From contig DAOSDL010000005.1 in NCBI GenBank assembly GCA_035362335.1, positions 12,708 through 76,707 of the forward strand: DNA of 64,000 bases, in the 5' to 3' direction. Below, piece after piece: positions 7,398-50,781 of the stretch; the stretch's first letter is position 1, and each line of letters begins with the position of its first letter. The notes under the pieces were generated by a model. It was not told the DNA's origin, made no database searches, and worked only from the letters and a program-made list of their open reading frames with translations. The stretch comes from Bacteroidota bacterium. Lineage in GTDB: Bacteria; Bacteroidota; Ignavibacteria; SZUA-365. The translations under genes and the position numbers were made by a program.

Positions 7398-7600
7398 GAG
7401 AAATGAACAATCTCAAAATACACGACATGGCGAAAATCGCAAGCGTACGGGACGGATGAGGTCGCGGCATGTACTTCGCGATGCTACGGACTCCGTGGAG
7501 ATTGAATTCAAGCTCAAAACCACAGTCATTCATGTTCCTTCGTCACACCCGGGAGAATGAAAATGGTGCGGAGATTGGATTATTCGGATTCGACACGGTT

Positions 7601-8071
7601 TTAAAACCACGGATTTCGCAGATTATCCACAGATTAGCACAGATTATTCGTGGAAGTCCACAAGGATCCGAGCAGTAGCCGCAAGGAAAGCAATCCAACA
7701 CCTGTTGTCGAAAGTGACGCGAAACACGCGTACATTGCCTGCTGGGACAGCGGTGGTGCGGGTTGACTCCCGGCTACTACCGTCAAACTTTACTCTTTAC
7801 TCTTCACTCTTTACTCATCACCGCGCAGAAGCGCATGATGCAGGCAGCGACACTATTTTCAGAGCAGATTGCACGGATTGCACACAGATTAGCATAGATT
7901 ATTCGTGGAAGTCGGCGAGGTGCCGGGCGAATCGTCGCAGATGAAGCGATCAGACGCCCGCTGACAGCAGTGATGCGAATCGGCGTTTATTGCCTGCGGT
8001 GCCGGCGGGAGTACGGGTTGGCTCCTGCGACTACCGTCAAACTTTACTCTTTACTCTTCACTCTTTACTCA
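7601..8071. repeat. Imperfect tandem duplication (2 x about 215-245 bp) in a 700-bp ORF-free, AT-richer spacer
   Basis: Copy 1 is about 7601-7817 and copy 2 about 7861-8071. They share a near-identical head (cagattagcaYagattattcgtggaagtc) and an identical 41-bp tail (ctaccgtcaaactttactctttactcttcactctttactca). The tail on the other strand reads as four GAGTRAA heptads. An exact TTATCCACA sits at 7623-7631. Confidence 0.6.
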
Positions 8072-8109
8072 ACGCATCACTGCGCAACCGACATGCCGAT
8101 GCGGCAGGG

Positions 8110-9379: not shown

Positions 9380-9634
9380 CGGGCGACCGGGAGAGGGCCG
9401 AGGATTGTTTCGCTTCGTGCTATCGGTGGCCCGAATCTGTCACCGGGCAGAGTACGGGGGGAGTTGGACATGGTTGCGCGAAGGATTTTCATAAACTCTT
9501 TGAAATGAAACATTGATGCGCTATATTTACTTGCTCTGAATGGCACAACCACATTCAGTGCGGCGTACATTGTCCCGATTCGGATTACACACGGAAGTTA
9601 CACAGAAAATACAGGTTCATCGGAGCACAGAAGC

Positions 9635-10240
9635 ATGAAGTACAACGGCCCCAAGGTCAAACTTTCCCGCCAGCTTGGTATCCCCCTCACCCCCAAGGCC
9701 TCGAAGATCATGGAGCGCAAGCCGCATCCGCCCGGTGCGCATGGCCTGTCGCGCAATCGTCGCGCCAAGGTGTCGGATTACAAGCGTCAGCTTCTCGAGA
9801 AGCAGCGTCTGCGCTGGCAGTACAACATCAGCGAGAAGCAGATGCGCAATTACTACGAGAAAGCTTCGCGCAAGACGGGAAACACGGCCGACAACCTCGC
9901 GACCTTGCTTGAGACGCGCCTCGATGCCGTGGTCTTCCGTGGCGGCCTCGCCCGCACGATTCATGCCGCACGCCAGTATGTGACGCATGGACACGTGGAA
10001 GTGAACGGCCAGCGCGTGAACATTCCGTCGTACCATGTGCGCGTGAACGATGTGATCAGCGTGCGCCAGAAGAGCCGCAAGATCGCGATGTTCAACGATG
10101 CGGTCAAGCTGTCGCGTCCGCCCGAGTATCTGGACACCAACAAGCCCGAGCTTTCCATCACCGTGCTTGCGCAGCCCGATCGCGAGCGCATCCCTGTGGT
10201 GTGCGAGTTCCCGCTGGTGATCGAGTACTACTCGCGCTGA
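9635..10240 (+). CDS. rpsD: 30S ribosomal protein S4
   Basis: 201 aa. Full-length match to the bacterial S4 pattern (MKYNGPKVKLSRQLG...; S4 RNA-binding domain RLDAVVFRGGLARTIHAARQYVTHGHVEVNG). Confidence 0.95.
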   Translation: MKYNGPKVKLSRQLGIPLTPKASKIMERKPHPPGAHGLSRNRRAKVSDYKRQLLEKQRLRWQYNISEKQMRNYYEKASRKTGNTADNLATLLETRLDAVVFRGGLARTIHAARQYVTHGHVEVNGQRVNIPSYHVRVNDVISVRQKSRKIAMFNDAVKLSRPPEYLDTNKPELSITVLAQPDRERIPVVCEFPLVIEYYSR

Positions 10241-10252
10241 TCCCCGCGATAC

Positions 10253-10268
10253 CGGCATCGATGCCGGA
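10253..10268 (+). terminator. Perfect 16-bp palindrome 13 nt after the rpsD stop (candidate terminator, no T-tract)
   Basis: ccggcatcgatgccgg. Confidence 0.3.
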
Positions 10269-10412
10269 AGATATTCCACAAACGGCGGACCGATGGCCCG
10301 CCGTTTTCTTTTCGAAGGAAAAGACCCGCGACTCCCGCGTTTGCGGAGTATGCGGATTTCATCGCATCTTACCTGCGAATGCGTCTCTCCTGTCACACCC
10401 GCGGACTCGACC

Positions 10413-12482
10413 ATGCATCGTTACCCCACCTTCATTCTCACCGTGCTTCTCCTCTGCATCACCGTCCCCGCCTCATGGGCGCAACAGGACGTCAATCGCG
10501 CGCGCCTCGCGGCGGCGGGTGGCGCCTGGATCGGCACAGCGGATGTGCTTGTCGTGTATGACAGCACCTCCGTGGACGTGCAGGAAAGCGGCCTCAGTTA
10601 CGTGCACATGCACAAACTCACCAAAGTGCTCACCGCGAAGGGCGCCATGAGTCTGCGGACGGTGGTGTTCGACTACGATCCGCTGTCGGCAGCGGTGGAG
10701 CTGCTGCTCGTGCGCATCTACCGCGCCGATGGTTCGGTGGAAGTGGTGGCCGCCGACCGCGTGCATGACTATCCCGCGCCGGCGCGCGCCATTTACTGGG
10801 GCGCGCGGCAGAAGCTGGTGGACATCGGCCGTCTCGAGGTGGGCGACGCGGTGGAAACCGTGGCCTTTCGCAAGGGCTTCACCTATGCGCTGCTCGGGAG
10901 CGAGGAGGACGACAGCCGCTTCGTTCCACCCATGCGCGGGCATTTTTACGATATCGTGGAATTCTGGTCCGCCGTTCCCGTGGCGGAAAAAGTGTATCGC
11001 GTGTTCATGCCGGCGGACAAGCCCTTGCAGTACGAGGTGTACAACGGCGAGGTCGCTTCCTACATCCATTTCCATCCGCAGCATCAGCATCGCGTGAAGG
11101 TTGCGGTGAATCCCACCGGCGCGCAGGCACTCACAAGCGAGGATGCCCTGCATCCCACCTCGGGCATGGTGACGCGGCCGGGCAAGGTGACCTACTGTTG
11201 GTACAAGCGCAACATCACGCCGTTGCGGCGCGAGAGCGACATGGTCGATCCTTCGGATGTCGCGCCCAAGTTGCTGCTTTCCACTTCGCCGGACTGGTAT
11301 GCGAAGGCGGTGTGGTTTCACGGTGTAAACGAGGATTTCGGCAGCTTCGCCGTCACGCCCGAAGTGCAGGCGCAGACCGACAAGCTGCTGCACGGGGTAA
11401 GTGGAGAGCAGGAAAAAATCGCCGTGCTCAATCACTGGGTGGCCGAGGAAATCCGCTACTCCGGTATTTCCATGGGGCAGGGCGAGGGCTACACGTTGCA
11501 CACCGGGCAGATGACCTACCTCGATCGCTGCGGTGTGTGCAAGGACAAGGCCGGCATGCTCGTGACCATGCTGCGCGCGGCGGGCTTCGAGTCCTATCCC
11601 GCCATGACCATGGCAGGTTCGCGCATCGATCGCATTCCCGCCGATCAATTCAACCACAGCGTCGCCGCGGTGAAGCTGAGCACAGGCGAGTGGATGCTGC
11701 TGGATCCAACGTGGATTCCCGGCGTGCGCGAAATGTGGTCCAGCGCCGAGCAGCAGCAGGAATTCCTGCTCGGCATTCCCGGTGGCGCCGATGTGATGAG
11801 TACGCCGGTGTCGCCCGCCGAAAATCACTACTGGAAGGCCGTCAACCACGCCACGCTGGCCGAGGATGGCAGTCTCGAGGGCACGGTGACCATCGAAGCC
11901 GAGGGGCAGAGCGATTCCATGCTGCGCCGGGCATTCGCGCGTTCGTATCGCTCGTCGTGGGAGGATCAGTTCACCACGCTGTTCCTGCGGAAATTTCCGC
12001 AGGCCACGGTGGGCGTGAGCGCGATGACAAGAATCGAGGATTTGTCCGTCCCCTTTTCCATTACTCTCACGTATCGCATTCCCGCCTACGCGACGATTGA
12101 CGGGAAGAAGGTGCTGCTGCGCTCGCTGCTGCTGGACACGCCGTTCGACGACAGCTTCAACGCGGCGGAGCTGGGCATAGCCACGGCGCTGGAGAAGCGC
12201 GACTATGGTTTCCGGACGCGCTGCTCGAAACTCGTGCGTCTCGACGAGACGATCACGCTTCCGGCGTCGCTGCGTGCCGAGCGTTTGCCCGACCGCGTGC
12301 AGCACATCGCGGCGCCCGCCAGTTTCATCGCGGCGGTGACGATGGAGGGCAACGCGCTCAGCATTTCCGCCGAGCATCGTCTGGAGAAGCGCCTGTACGA
12401 AGCGGCTGAATGGCCGGCGTTCCGCGCCGCCTTGCTCGCGCGAAAGGAACTCTCGTCCACACCCATCATTCTCTCACGCTAG
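10413..12482 (+). CDS. Secreted DUF3857 / transglutaminase-like cysteine protease-fold protein
   Basis: The track ORF starts at 10293. A signal-peptide start MHRYPTFILTVLLLCITVPASWAQQ at 10413 is more likely. Transglutaminase-like core: GVCKDKAGMLVTMLRAAGF (Cys), NHSVAAV (His), LLDPT (Asp). Confidence 0.78.
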   Translation: MHRYPTFILTVLLLCITVPASWAQQDVNRARLAAAGGAWIGTADVLVVYDSTSVDVQESGLSYVHMHKLTKVLTAKGAMSLRTVVFDYDPLSAAVELLLVRIYRADGSVEVVAADRVHDYPAPARAIYWGARQKLVDIGRLEVGDAVETVAFRKGFTYALLGSEEDDSRFVPPMRGHFYDIVEFWSAVPVAEKVYRVFMPADKPLQYEVYNGEVASYIHFHPQHQHRVKVAVNPTGAQALTSEDALHPTSGMVTRPGKVTYCWYKRNITPLRRESDMVDPSDVAPKLLLSTSPDWYAKAVWFHGVNEDFGSFAVTPEVQAQTDKLLHGVSGEQEKIAVLNHWVAEEIRYSGISMGQGEGYTLHTGQMTYLDRCGVCKDKAGMLVTMLRAAGFESYPAMTMAGSRIDRIPADQFNHSVAAVKLSTGEWMLLDPTWIPGVREMWSSAEQQQEFLLGIPGGADVMSTPVSPAENHYWKAVNHATLAEDGSLEGTVTIEAEGQSDSMLRRAFARSYRSSWEDQFTTLFLRKFPQATVGVSAMTRIEDLSVPFSITLTYRIPAYATIDGKKVLLRSLLLDTPFDDSFNAAELGIATALEKRDYGFRTRCSKLVRLDETITLPASLRAERLPDRVQHIAAPASFIAAVTMEGNALSISAEHRLEKRLYEAAEWPAFRAALLARKELSSTPIILSR

Positions 12483-21257: not shown

Positions 21258-21601
21258 TGAATGCTTGAGAACAACATGCGTCCCGAGTGGAAAGTTTCAC
21301 AGTTCTTCCGTGAAAATGGTATGGGTGCGATGATGTGCAACGGAGCGGATTTGACAGAGGGGGAAAACCACAGATAGCACGGATTTCACACGGATTTTCA
21401 CAGATGAATCGGAGAAGGGTGCGCGGGCAGCGGTTACTTTTCACCATTTTTCCTTTTGCCTCGTGATTGCGTGGTAGCATCGCGGCATCGCGATTATCCA
21501 AACCGGCGGGGCCCATTATCCACGGGGACTTCGTATATTAGTACATCCACGCCTTTTTATCGCGCGGATATCACGAAGTACTCATCGAAACAGAGATCAG
21601 C

Positions 21602-46741: not shown

Positions 46742-47734
46742 ATGTTAGGGCAGTGGTTTTCTCTCGCGCGGAAAGGAGTTGTTGCATCGCCCATGGGTGA
46801 CGGGCACCATCATCATCATCACCATCACGAGCGTGACAGCGCTCGCGACATCGGGTTGGCGTTTTTCCTCAACCTCGGTTTCGCGATAGCGGAGATCATC
46901 GGCGGCATACTCACCAACAGTCTCGCCATACTCTCCGACGCGTTGCACGATTTTGGCGACAGTCTGATTCTCGGTGTGAGTTGGTTGCTGGAGCGCCGCG
47001 CGCGGCGTGCGCCCACCGCGAGGTACAGCTATGGCTATCGCCGCGTGTCGCTGCTCGGCGCGTTCGTGAATGTGGTGGTGCTCGTGGCGGGTTCGGTGTA
47101 CATCATCACCGAAGCCATACCGCGAATCCTGCATCCGCAGGACACCGATGCGGTGGGCATGATGTGGTTCGCCATCGCCGGTGTGCTGATCAACGGTCTG
47201 GCGGCGTTACGCCTCCGCGGCTCGGGATCGATGAACGCACGCGTGGTGGCCTGGCATTTGCTCGAGGATGTGCTGGGCTGGACCGCCGTGCTGGTGGTGA
47301 GTATTGTCATGCAGTTCACCTACCTGCCCGTGCTCGATCCGCTGCTTTCGCTGCTCATCGCCACGTACATTCTGTACTACAATGTGGCGGTGAATTTGTA
47401 CCGGACTGTGCGTCTGTTCTTGCAGGCGGTGCCCGAGAGCATTGATCTCGACGAGTTGCGGCGACGCATTCTCGCCATCGACAAGGTGCGCGCGGTACAT
47501 CACGCGCATGTGTGGTCGCTCGACGGCGCGCAGCATGTGCTGTCGGCGCATGTGGTGGTGGCCGCCGGAGTGGACAAAGCCGAGGTCATCGGCATCAAGC
47601 AGCGCATCAAGCAGGATTTGCTCGGTGAACACATCGAGCATCTCACCATCGAGATCGAGTACGAGGACGAGGACTGCATCATGGGTTCGACCTGGAACGG
47701 TGCCGCAGCCGGCACCACGACGAGCGAGGAATAA
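46742..47734 (+). CDS. Cation-diffusion-facilitator (CzcD/ZitB-like) metal efflux transporter with an N-terminal His8 tract
   Basis: CDF signature ([15 protein letters not shown]). HHHHHHHH at the N-terminus. An alternative start MGDGHHHH at 46793 follows a GAAAGGAG ribosome-binding site. Confidence 0.82.
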
Positions 47735-48546
47735 TGGATACGACGCATCTCTTTTTCGCCTTCGGGCTCACGGTGTTTGCCGGCCTGTCCACCGGCATCG
47801 GCAGTGCCCTGGCGTTTTTCGCAAAGCGCACCAACACCCGCTTTCTCTCCCTGTCCATGGGATTTTCCGCGGGTGTGATGATTTACGTGTCGATGGTGGA
47901 AATCTTCGTCAAGGCCAAGGATTCGCTTATCGAAGCGCTGGGCGTGACGGGCGGCAACTGGGCCACTGTCGGCGGATTTTTCGGAGGCATCGCTCTCATT
48001 GCGGTCATCGACAAGCTCGTGCCTTCCGGCGATAATCCGCATGAGATGCGCATGGTGGAGGAAATTCCCGCGGCCGGAGCGCAGCCCGACATGCGCCGGC
48101 TTATGCGCACGGGCATGTTCTCGGCCATCGCCATCGCCATACACAATTTTCCCGAAGGGCTGGCCACCTTTCTCTCCGCCATGAAGGATCCCACGCTCGG
48201 CATTCCCATCGCCGTGGCCGTGGCAATTCACAATATTCCCGAGGGTATCGCGGTGAGCATTCCGGTGTTCTACGCCACCAACAACCGCAAGCGCGCCTTT
48301 CTGCTTTCCTTCGGTTCGGGGCTCGCCGAACCCGTAGGCGCCATCCTCGGCTATTTCATCCTGCTGCAATTCTTCAGCGACGTCGTCTTCGGCATCGTCT
48401 TCGCTTCCGTGGCGGGCATCATGGTTTTCATTTCCCTGGACGAACTACTCCCCGGCGCCCGCGAGTACGGCGAACATCACCTCGCGATCTACGGTCTCAT
48501 TGCCGGCATGGTGGTGATGGCGATCAGCTTGCTGCTCTTTGTCTGA
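47734..48546 (+). CDS. zupT: ZIP-family zinc transporter
   Basis: 270 aa. Repeated HNFPEGLA / HNIPEGIAV metal-binding motifs. The start overlaps the CDF stop (TAATG). Confidence 0.88.
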
Positions 48547-48570
48547 GTGGCGAAGCGTTGAGTGCAGCTG

Positions 48571-48875
48571 GCTGAGTGCGTGATACATTCGAAGAGCGCG
48601 GAGAGCGCAGGGCGCGGAGGATGGGTTGAGGTCGCATCCCGCTCAGATCATGCCAGCGAGCTGAGTGCGGGATACATTTGAAGAGATGAAAGAGAGTGGA
48701 GAGAGCGGAGAGGAATTGTTGAGGTTGCTTCCCGCTCGATCCGTGCGCCACGCCGCAATCGAATCAACGCAAGGACGCCGAGCCGCTTAGCCGCGAACCC
48801 TCTGGGCCCTCGGTGTTCGCGAAGCGCTCTGGGTTCTCCGTGTTCCCGCGAAGCGCTCTGGGTACTCCGTGTTCC
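48571..48875. repeat. Cluster of direct repeats in a 500-bp non-coding spacer
   Basis: Two copies of a roughly 75-bp unit are at 48571-48644 and 48660-48737; each begins gctgagtgcgKgatacattYgaagag and ends cccgctc. A roughly 27-bp unit (gcgaagcgctctgggtWctccgtgttc) occurs three times at 48792-48873, followed by a polypyrimidine tract (48885-48925). Confidence 0.6.
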
Positions 48876-49056
48876 ACAATTCCTCCTTACCCTCCTTTCC
48901 TCCTTACTCTCATTCTTCACTGTATTACACGATCACGCTCACCCCACCACACTGAATCGGCGCACGGATCACTCCTCGTCTGATAAAAATCCCGTTTCTT
49001 TCGCAACGCTGCGGATAATATATTCCGGTATCTTGTTCCATTCCCGGAGAAGTAGC

Positions 49057-50781
49057 ATGCGTTACCCGCTGGAGGAGTACCCGTTGTACACCGTGCCGGA
49101 GCTGCGAACGTTTCAGGACATTCTCCGCAACGGCTTCACCGCGCATCCCGATCGTATCGCGCTGTCCGATCTCGCGCCCACGCCGATTCAGCAGGTCACC
49201 TACGCCCAGCTCTTCCGGCACGTGGTGCGTTTCGGACAGGCGTTGCGCGGCATGGGACTGAAGGAGCGCGACCATATCGCGCTCATCGCCGAGAATCGCG
49301 TGCAATGGGCCATCGCCTATCTCGCTATCACCAGCTTCAACTTCGTTGTGGTGCCGATCGACCGCAATCTCAAGGAGAACGAGATTCTCACGATTCTCCA
49401 TGCATCCGATGCGCGCGCCGCCGTGTTTTCGGAGAGTTTCCGCGAAATGTTCGACGAATTCTCCCGCTCGGTGCGGCAACTCGAATTTCTGGTGGACATG
49501 GATTTACCCGCGCGACGCGACAATATGCATGCGATGCGCGAAGTGATCGAAGCGCAGCCGTTGCCCGCCGCCGGAGATCCTTTTCCAGTGCTTACACCCG
49601 AGGACATGGCCGTGATCGTCTTCACCTCCGGATCCATGGGACATGCGAAAGGGGTGATGCTGTCGCAGAAAAACATCTGCGCCAATCTTCGCGCCATGCT
49701 GCAGATGGTGGAGATCGTGGCGGAGGACCGCTTCCTCTCGGTGCTGCCTATGCATCACACCTACGAATGCACCTGCGGCTTTCTCTGTCCGCTGGTCACC
49801 GGCGCTTCCACGCATTTCGCGCGCTCGCTGAAAACCGTGGCCGAAGACATGCTCTCGGTTCGGCCCACGGTGCTGCTGGGCGTACCGCTGTTGTTCGAGA
49901 AAATGTACCGCCGCATCAGCAAGGCCATCGAGGAAAAGAAAATCGCCTCGGCCATCATGAAGCCGCTGCAGGCCATGATCACCGTGCTCGAAGTGGCAGG
50001 CGTGAAGGGCGCGCGGAAGAAGGTGTTCCACGAAGTGCACGATCGCTTCGGCGGAGCCATTCGTCTGCTCATCGTCGGTGGAGCCGCGCCCGAACCCTCG
50101 GTGGCCGCCGGTTTCCAGGCTTTGGGTTTCGCCTTTCTCCAGGGCTATGGCCTCACCGAATGTTCGCCCATTCTCGCGCTCAATCGCGAGCGCAAATTCA
50201 AGAACGAAGCCGCCGGCCTCCCACTGCCGGGTGTGGCGATACGCATCGAGGATCCGGACGAGGAGGGGCGCGGCGAGATCGTTGCCAAAGGCGACAGCAT
50301 CATGCTCGGCTATTACCGCAACGAGCAGGCCACCAAGGCCGTGCTCGCCGACGGCTGGTTCAACACAGGCGACTACGGCTTCATCGATGCGGATGGTTTT
50401 CTCCACATCAATGGACGCAAGAAAAATGTGATCATCGCGCGCAACGGCAAGAATGTGTTTCCCGAGGAACTCGAAGAGCAAATCACACGCTTGCCCTTCG
50501 TGCTCGAATGCGTGGTGCACGGCGTGAAGTCCGCAAACGGCGACGAGTACATCGCAGCGATGATCGTGCCCGATGCGAACGCAGTGTACGAACACGCCAA
50601 CGCGCAGGGCAAGGAGGTCACCTCCGATTTCGTGCAGGCGCTGCTCGACGAGGAAATACGCAAGCTCAACCGCAAGCTGCCCGTGTACAAGCAGATCCGC
50701 CATGTGGCGCTGCGCGACAGCGAATTTGAAAAAACCACCACGCAGAAAATCAAACGCTACCTGGTGGAAGGCCACGCGTAG
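49057..50781 (+). CDS. Long-chain-fatty-acid--CoA ligase (AMP-binding superfamily)
   Basis: GGAGAAG ribosome-binding site, then ATG at 49057. AMP-binding motif VFTSGSMGHAKGVMLS, with GYGLTE and a late GDxG/K motif. Confidence 0.85.
   Translation: MRYPLEEYPLYTVPELRTFQDILRNGFTAHPDRIALSDLAPTPIQQVTYAQLFRHVVRFGQALRGMGLKERDHIALIAENRVQWAIAYLAITSFNFVVVPIDRNLKENEILTILHASDARAAVFSESFREMFDEFSRSVRQLEFLVDMDLPARRDNMHAMREVIEAQPLPAAGDPFPVLTPEDMAVIVFTSGSMGHAKGVMLSQKNICANLRAMLQMVEIVAEDRFLSVLPMHHTYECTCGFLCPLVTGASTHFARSLKTVAEDMLSVRPTVLLGVPLLFEKMYRRISKAIEEKKIASAIMKPLQAMITVLEVAGVKGARKKVFHEVHDRFGGAIRLLIVGGAAPEPSVAAGFQALGFAFLQGYGLTECSPILALNRERKFKNEAAGLPLPGVAIRIEDPDEEGRGEIVAKGDSIMLGYYRNEQATKAVLADGWFNTGDYGFIDADGFLHINGRKKNVIIARNGKNVFPEELEEQITRLPFVLECVVHGVKSANGDEYIAAMIVPDANAVYEHANAQGKEVTSDFVQALLDEEIRKLNRKLPVYKQIRHVALRDSEFEKTTTQKIKRYLVEGHA

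Follow-up and report, generated by a model that had tools for sequence, protein, structure and literature searches.

The DNA between zupT and the acyl-CoA synthetase gene downstream of it raises the question of why a spacer of 510 bp (48547–49056) between two co-oriented genes is filled with repeats, and whether these repeats form a structured RNA, a regulatory array or a piece of repetitive genomic DNA. We addressed this question in a contiguous stretch of 64,000 nucleotides (the window). A sequence-only reading had described three layered structures in this spacer and had proposed that they possibly constitute an ncRNA or an iteron-like regulatory array. The left neighbour, zupT (47734–48546, plus strand), encodes a ZIP-family zinc transporter (Pfam PF02535, E = 4e-31) whose product is identical to HOJ03148.1, which NCBI names ZupT. 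The right neighbour (49057–50781, plus strand; ATG at 49057) encodes an AMP-binding, long-chain acyl-CoA synthetase-like protein (Pfam PF00501, E = 6e-74) and is referred to as acs in the following. Upstream of zupT lies a CDF-family cation efflux gene (46742–47734) whose product has eight consecutive histidines in its N-terminal part; the stop of this gene and the start of zupT overlap (ATGA). Judged from this arrangement, the adjacent genes for zinc efflux and zinc uptake are probably co-transcribed.

We performed a genome scan with the synthetase protein, and the closest genomes, L001 and L002, share only 70–71% amino acid identity with it. Both keep the order CDF–zupT–synthetase, with spacers of 148 and 117 bp, respectively, that do not contain the repeats. 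The last ~85 bp before the acs ATG (48971–49056, plus strand) align with these two spacers, with the ATG and a GGAG at 49046–49049 invariant, and represent the native region upstream of acs. A short native spacer (48547–48570, plus strand), delimited by comparison of left flanks at 34 sites, separates the zupT stop from the first repeat unit. Since the spacers of L001 and L002 are short and alignable, ~400 bp of the spacer in the window are extra. Comparison of the three genomes shows that an ancestral spacer of ~110–150 bp has been lengthened to 510 bp by a repeat element, which left the acs-proximal ~85 bp intact. The spacer sequence is not an assembly artefact, because independent assemblies (JGI, ENA and NCBI) agree: five longer JGI/ENA contigs are 100% identical to the window over the full spacer, and two Logan contigs agree with it across the 92 nt covered.

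The repeats in the spacer are ordered modules of one composite element (window ~48571–48941, with a subfamily-specific extension to 48970). Nhmmer profiles of four modules, denoted U (unit), T (tail), m (27–29-bp unit) and R (CT-rich end), resolve the architecture U U T m m m R between 48571 and 48942. The repeats that had been read as three layered structures are real, but they belong together as modules of this single element. The unit U1 (48571–48659, plus strand; E = 2.5e-18 over 48571–48654) has an X-type core of GAGAGCGCG 9-nt subrepeats, small deletions relative to the family consensus and an atypical linker, TCAGATCATGCCAGCGA, which is also found in L110, L091 and L121. U2 (48660–48737, plus strand; E = 3.1e-24 over 48660–48749) has a Y-type core (GATGAAAGAGAGTGGAGAGAGCGGAGAGGAATTG); both E-values derive from a profile built on other copies. 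A repeat search recovers the same pair of units, noticed previously as ~75-bp repeats, from the direct repeats 48565–48596/48654–48685 (88%) and 48609–48644/48702–48737 (78%) at a spacing of 89–93 bp. Two features had escaped the sequence-only reading. The interval between the repeats is itself a conserved module, the 57-bp tail T (48738–48795, plus strand; GATCCGTGCGCC...CGCAATCGAATCAACGCAAGG...GCCGCGA; tail profile E = 1.9e-16), which always follows the last unit and lies between U and m (42 matches in fetched loci), and the CT tract is an inverted 75-bp unit.

The m array (48791–48875, plus strand) consists of three units of 27, 29 and 29 bp (CGCGAAGCGCTCTGGGTACTCCGTGTTCC), detected both by Tandem Repeats Finder (48791–48875, period 29, 3.0 copies, 84% matches, score 114) and by the r29 profile (E = 8e-14, 9e-13 and 9.5e-06), in agreement with the threefold 27-bp unit previously placed at 48792–48873. 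It is followed by R (48873–48941, minus strand; right-module profile E = 2.8e-16), an inverted, 3′-truncated unit of a divergent (Z/W) subtype that is CT-rich on the plus strand and ends in GCTCA (reverse complement TGAGC). R contains CCTCCTTTC, whose complement holds AAGGAGG three times, and it covers the polypyrimidine tract noted earlier: positions 48885–48925 are indeed 85% pyrimidine, a level matched only once more in 64 kb, at a coding Lys/Glu stretch. The extension (48942–48970, minus strand) is common to a subfamily, as seen from the same 24 nt in other loci and from the inverted repeat I2. Its positions 48942–48965 read VRRFSVVG on the minus strand, followed by TGA at 48939–48941, and 48959–48970 (GGCGCACGGATC) repeats the first 12 nt of T in inverted-complement form. 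The GC content across the spacer is 49–66% in 100-nt windows. The left edge of the element is fuzzy; in other copies it falls ~13 nt before GCTGAG (34 left flanks compared).

Family units measure ~84–102 bp, typically 93 bp, and combine conserved ends with a purine-rich core of 9-nt subrepeats, so that unit length varies in steps of 9. The 5′ end is well conserved (GCTGAGTGCGKGATACATTYGAAGAG), and the 3′ end consists of GTTGAGGNNGCWTCCCGCTC plus the linker. Among 63 aligned units, TACAT in the 5′ end is invariant and 19 columns are invariant and a further 34 nearly so, values that are inflated by ascertainment since an exact 23-nt match was the criterion for fetching the loci. The cores fall into two discrete types, X, with three to four GAGAGCGCG-like subrepeats, and Y, GATGAAAGAGAGCGGAGAGAGCGGAGAGGAATTG. 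We accept R as an inverted unit without its 3′ end, with homology that is transitive and runs through intermediates: (i) a Z unit in the normal unit slot of L091 and L110 is matched in reverse by the R profile (E = 2.5e-11), and (ii) the R slot of L104 and L103 holds an inverted unit (unit profile E = 1.8e-10 and 6.7e-08), whereas the direct comparison of the unit profile with the reverse complement of R is not significant, shuffled controls scoring as well. With R as an inverted unit, the element possesses imperfect terminal inverted repeats formed by U1 and R.

Neither self-BLAST of the spacer nor the module profiles found another copy within the 64-kb window, and dispersal is therefore seen only through a pattern scan of metagenome contigs. 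We scanned for the exact 23-nt pattern GAGTNCGNGATACATTNGAAGAG, the conserved 5′ part of the unit, and obtained 49 matches in 38 stretches; 46 of the 49, distributed over more than 25 contigs, are family units additional to those of the window, often in tandem at a spacing of 93 bp and sometimes of 102 bp. In the fetched loci, the profiles match U 86 times, T 42 times, m 138 times and R 34 times. Every complete locus has the form U(1–4)–T–m(2–9)–R, co-oriented and 258–589 bp long, and this order and orientation are found in 39 elements, with 34 distinct left and 30 distinct right flanks after flank clustering. The family occupies at least 30 distinct intergenic sites, mostly just 3′ of genes, with a copy number estimated from metagenomes that may mix strains. 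No module match was found in 909 kb from 80 relatives or in viral contigs and plasmid and phage collections, and three module sequences are absent from the literature searched by sequence. The family is apparently undescribed and, as far as these comparisons reach, unrelated in sequence to anything searched. In kind it is a new family within a known class, the bacterial interspersed modular repeats (BOX/MIRU/MITE-like); to our knowledge, no repeat families have been described for this uncultured, GC-rich Bacteroidota/Ignavibacteriota-like lineage.

We conclude that the stretch ~48571–48941 of the window is very probably a single copy of a repeat element that is modular, non-coding and interspersed in many copies in an uncultured Bacteroidota/Ignavibacteriota-like lineage. 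Because the same element occurs at at least 30 sites, it represents genomic repeat DNA and not a zupT- or acs-specific regulator, and at the zupT–acs locus it is most likely a passive passenger. The proposal of an iteron-like regulatory array is not supported: the same ordered array is found at at least 30 unrelated sites and is absent from the syntenic spacer of L001 and L002, the closest genomes beyond this lineage. An iteron or origin-type array was also rejected on the grounds that plasmid and phage collections gave no match and that the neighbours encode a zinc transporter and an acyl-CoA synthetase, and a CRISPR array was rejected as the m and U units stand head-to-tail without spacers.

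The gene context of the family is convergent at ~17 sites, co-oriented in tandem at ~11 (including the window) and anti-oriented at 4, with no divergent site. Read in the orientation of the element, the U end usually lies 8–110 bp past the stop of a co-oriented gene. The R end adjoins the stop of a convergent gene at ~17 sites; at ~11 others, a co-oriented gene follows 68–345 bp downstream of it. This distribution is that expected for repeats tolerated at gene 3′ ends.

Comparison of strains and loci shows three arrays that change length, in steps of 9, 27–29 and 84–102 (typically 93) nt. In L086 (99% ANI), ~10% of positions differ in the first 56 nt of the spacer. L091 (98% ANI) carries three units and four 29-bp m repeats compared with three m repeats in the window, and the identical loci L089 and L090 (90% ANI) have a 414-bp spacer with the units in reversed order (Y–X) and no 29-bp array. 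Between the window and L089, the Y unit shows 96% identity and the flanks, mostly coding, 90–91%, a difference that fits either gene conversion or constraint. The locus L110 comes from a metagenome that also yielded a contig identical to the window. Its copy of the element and the window copy have nearly the same X–Y units, atypical linker included. L091 (GCA_036770555.1, DAIPIY010000046.1), between positions 1793 and 6789, connects the TonB-receptor locus known from L110 (97% identity) with the synthetase locus of the window, and the switch point lies inside the shared repeat element. This junction reflects either a real rearrangement mediated by the repeat or a chimera of the assembly, with a mis-join in the metagenome-assembled genome (MAG) as the likely case. 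These data show arrays that expand and contract and modules that are exchanged between loci. Several short-read contigs end inside the array, and Logan contigs from this strain or close relatives start or end in the element at window positions 48600, 48638 and 48892, consistent with assemblers breaking on a multi-copy repeat. The multi-copy nature of the element explains the short-read contig breaks at this spacer, and repeats of this kind cause mis-joins in MAGs, of which L091 is a likely example.

Colonisation of at least 30 unrelated sites requires some transposition, and we infer that the element was dispersed in this way. The element would have spread to new sites in the manner of a MITE, without autonomy of its own and moved in trans by way of the imperfect inverted units at its ends; we consider this the most likely dispersal route, at about an even chance. 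Present upkeep and homogenisation would rely mainly on replication slippage or unequal crossing-over and on gene conversion between copies. Several results argue against the explanation as a whole. No target-site duplication was found for any offset pair at the 21 sites with both ends, at most 3 of these 21 sites share any flank–flank direct repeat of ≥4 nt, and both the left and the right edges are fuzzy among copies. No partner transposase with matching ends was found in the ~0.4 Mb of genome covered, the R-unit homology is reached only via intermediates, and the 96% identity of the Y unit against 90–91% in the flanks could reflect functional constraint rather than selfish DNA. In L111 (contig OFEK01000301), an IS110-family IS (9430–11432; Pfam DEDD_Tnp_IS110 and Transposase_20) sits inside a Y-type unit, with the junctions GAAGAGAT|ACTACGG... 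and ...ACATACC|AGAGCGAAGAG and with ends unrelated to those of the element. From its position inside the unit, the repeat unit serves as an IS110 target.

We weighed the repeat-element explanation against readings in which the spacer is functional as RNA, as protein-coding sequence or as a binding array. The element could act in cis on the RNA level, as a 3′ UTR stabiliser, an attenuator or an anti-Shine-Dalgarno mimic that tunes zupT or acs, for example if the CCUCCUU repeats of R paired with the acs ribosome-binding site or with unit cores rich in GGAG. It lies between co-oriented genes, and neither a sigma-70-like promoter nor an intrinsic terminator is predicted within the spacer; because no terminator was found after zupT, the element is probably co-transcribed with it. 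Family members prefer sites after gene 3′ ends, R contains the sequence complementary to AAGGAGG ×3, and co-transcribed BOX, ERIC and Correia repeats alter expression (PMC3049150). Against these points stands the absence of a recognisable structure. Rfam gives 0 matches at the gathering score in 64 kb and nothing relevant at E up to 10 between 48300 and 49300. Dinucleotide shuffles fold as stably as the whole element, whichever strand is taken (z = +0.58 and −0.65); z ranges from −1.5 to +1.0 for single units and the m array and averages −0.65 and −0.71 over eight other elements. For 63 distinct units, RNAalifold yields −0.28 kcal/mol, essentially no consensus structure. The pairing proposed from the letters, between the end of the first unit (tcccgctcag) and the start of the second (ctgagtgcggga), is present in the sequence. 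Across the 63 units this stem (CTGAGTGCGGGA/TCCCGCTCAG) pairs in 72.7% of cells, but none of the changes is compensatory and 489 of 500 shuffles reach as much; the best single-sequence 3′ hairpin pairs in ~72% of cells with three doubly changed pairs, again no better than shuffles. A structured RNA gene, and with it the suggestion of an ncRNA, is not supported, given the lack of an Rfam match, near-zero z values and no covariation in the two stems. Relatives also regulate the same gene pair without the element, and a cis-acting RNA is quite unlikely. The zupT–acs spacer can be dropped as a candidate regulatory RNA or iteron. Two open reading frames on the minus strand, of 90 aa (48648–48920) and 75 aa (48524–48751), could in principle encode a small protein, as the CT-rich strand of the element has no stop codons and both frames are open. 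The longer frame had been recognised earlier and dismissed for its low GC3 and repetitive sequence, a judgement that we share: GC3 is 0.55 in this frame (0.54–0.55 in the two) vs 0.77–0.78 in the flanking genes, neither has a Pfam match, their exact sequences are absent from a 15-billion-protein collection although the contig has been gene-called several times, and the frames are not kept among copies. A protein product is hardly conceivable, and the region is non-coding as first read.

A binding array at the DNA or RNA level is an unlikely explanation, but one that several data would fit. Under this reading, a nucleoid-associated or RNA-binding protein would recognise the GAG-N6 cores with their 9-nt period, which U carries on its top strand and m and R on the bottom one, and selection would act on sequence and not on structure. 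The strongly conserved unit 5′ end in 63 units devoid of structural covariation, the Y unit at 96% across lineages with flanks at 90–91%, and the two discrete core types in place of a mutational continuum all speak for it. However, the conservation is inflated by the exact 23-nt fetch, gene conversion and recent spread also explain these observations, there is no known candidate for the binding protein, and copy number and module content vary freely among sites and strains. The remaining readings start from gene C-termini. The 24 nt encoding VRRFSVVG form the last eight codons of ORFs in L100, L104, L110, L119, L121 and L122 as well as in L116 and L131. Three unrelated ORFs end in this way. 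One is a multi-copy ORF, another codes for a BNR/sortilin-domain protein and the third for a class-V aminotransferase, in which 17 residues separate the end of the Pfam domain from the stop. In each, the stop is the TGA of the unit's CTGAG end. The 27-nt m repeat lies in frame, as NTENTEGFA ×2, inside the multi-copy ORF that adjoins several elements (L100 11084–11144, L104 12727–12773, L119 12702–12743, L122 133–179 and L110 182–223). All five contigs checked end 0.4–1.1 kb into this ORF, which suggests a repeated gene of high identity. The C-terminus of the ORF resembles a T9SS sorting domain by eye; Pfam does not support this assignment, with or without the repeat insert. The spacer could be decayed coding sequence, derived from duplicated 3′ parts of the multi-copy gene, with m originating from a 9-residue linker and the last eight codons at 48942–48965. 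The in-frame m repeats, the VRRFSVVG stop beside R in the window and repeat periods that are all multiples or near-multiples of 9 nt agree with such an origin, which is nevertheless very unlikely: the U and T profiles do not match the multi-copy ORF, periods of 29 nt and indels of 1–2 nt break every frame, no such ORF is found near most sites, and the eight-codon extension also occurs on the class-V aminotransferase and the BNR protein, which fits element-borne sequence better. The family might instead be active rather than inert, its 9-nt-periodic modules, conserved in sequence and devoid of structure, serving as a protein-recognised cassette that remodels gene 3′ ends and drives, through its repeats, diversification or exchange of protein C-terminal regions. 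This reading draws on the stops and last eight codons (VRRF[S/T]VV[G/R/E]) that the element supplies to unrelated genes and on the 9-residue repeats in frame in the multi-copy ORF, with recombination between loci promoted; we consider it highly improbable.

As an interspersed repeat, the element can be compared with known systems. Closest in working is BOX of Streptococcus pneumoniae and S. suis, with the arrangement boxA–boxB(n)–boxC (PMC3049150). Both are composite, modular, non-coding, intergenic interspersed repeats with tens to more than 100 copies, in both a variable tandem module is enclosed by terminal modules of which one is in part an inverted copy of the other, and both can form or extend ORFs and have no clear target-site duplication or active transposase. 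BOX is predicted to form extensive stem-loops, whereas the element has no excess stability and instead combines two independent variable arrays (units of typically 93 bp and of 27–29 bp) and a fixed tail with cores of 9-nt subrepeats. The host here is GC-rich and belongs to a different phylum, and homology is not expected; the analogy is functional only. With MITEs such as Correia of Neisseria and Nezha of cyanobacteria, the element shares its small size (258–589 bp), its non-coding and intergenic nature, its many dispersed copies and the imperfect terminal inverted repeats. It differs from them in having no target-site duplication, no tight fold-back, no AT-richness (49–66% GC) and no cognate IS identified, and in its internal variable-number arrays. 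The MIRU, or intergenic VNTR, loci of Mycobacterium tuberculosis, reportedly described by Supply et al. in 1997, are likewise said to be tandem units of 40–100 bp found at numerous intergenic loci, where most share the orientation of the upstream gene, with array lengths that vary by strain and ends that can overlap neighbouring stop codons. In the family described here, unit arrays of 1–4 occur at many sites, and the number of m repeats is 3 vs 4 between strains of 98% ANI; MIRU sequences are unrelated, and MIRU has one unit type without a tail, a second array or an inverted terminal unit. REP/BIME elements of enterobacteria and pseudomonads share the mosaic of direct and inverted units and a location past gene 3′ ends, for the most part where the neighbouring genes converge or point the same way. 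REP elements are insertion targets of IS621 (PMC11208160), which parallels the IS110-family insertion in one copy of our family, that in L111. REP units are imperfect palindromes of 20–40 bp that form stable hairpins, in contrast to units of typically 93 bp with no conserved hairpin. Two internal variable-number arrays, 9-nt periodic cores, the lack of a stable hairpin, the use as an IS110 target and ends that can become gene C-termini are the unusual traits of the family. Such repeats are usable as strain-typing loci and are natural targets for bridge-RNA recombinases.

A different repeat family is found elsewhere in the window. The polypyrimidine tract had been taken to echo the CT-rich tail of the spacer at 7398–8109, with shared ancestry as a possibility to be checked. 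The two are separate: BLASTN gives no match between the two spacers, and the profiles of the U, T, m and R modules reach only E = 0.05–0.09 on the 900-bp target, with high bias. The spacer at 7398–8109 consists of two tandem copies of ~250 bp (76% identical) of this second dispersed family (CACAGATTAGCACAGATTATTCG... with a TTTACTCTT-type tail), and further copies are found in L118, L129, L106 and L104, with a fragment at window 21371–21417. At the zupT end of the spacer, the stop TGA (48544–48546) lies within a CTGAGTG motif, and its context TGTCTGAGTG (48540–48549) resembles the unit start TGGCTGAGTG (48569–48578) located 29 nt downstream. TGAG is also present at the zupT stop in the relatives lacking the element, as CTGTGAGTC in L001 and CTCTGAGGC in L002. 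The likeness between stop context and unit start may be due to chance or may hint at a target preference.
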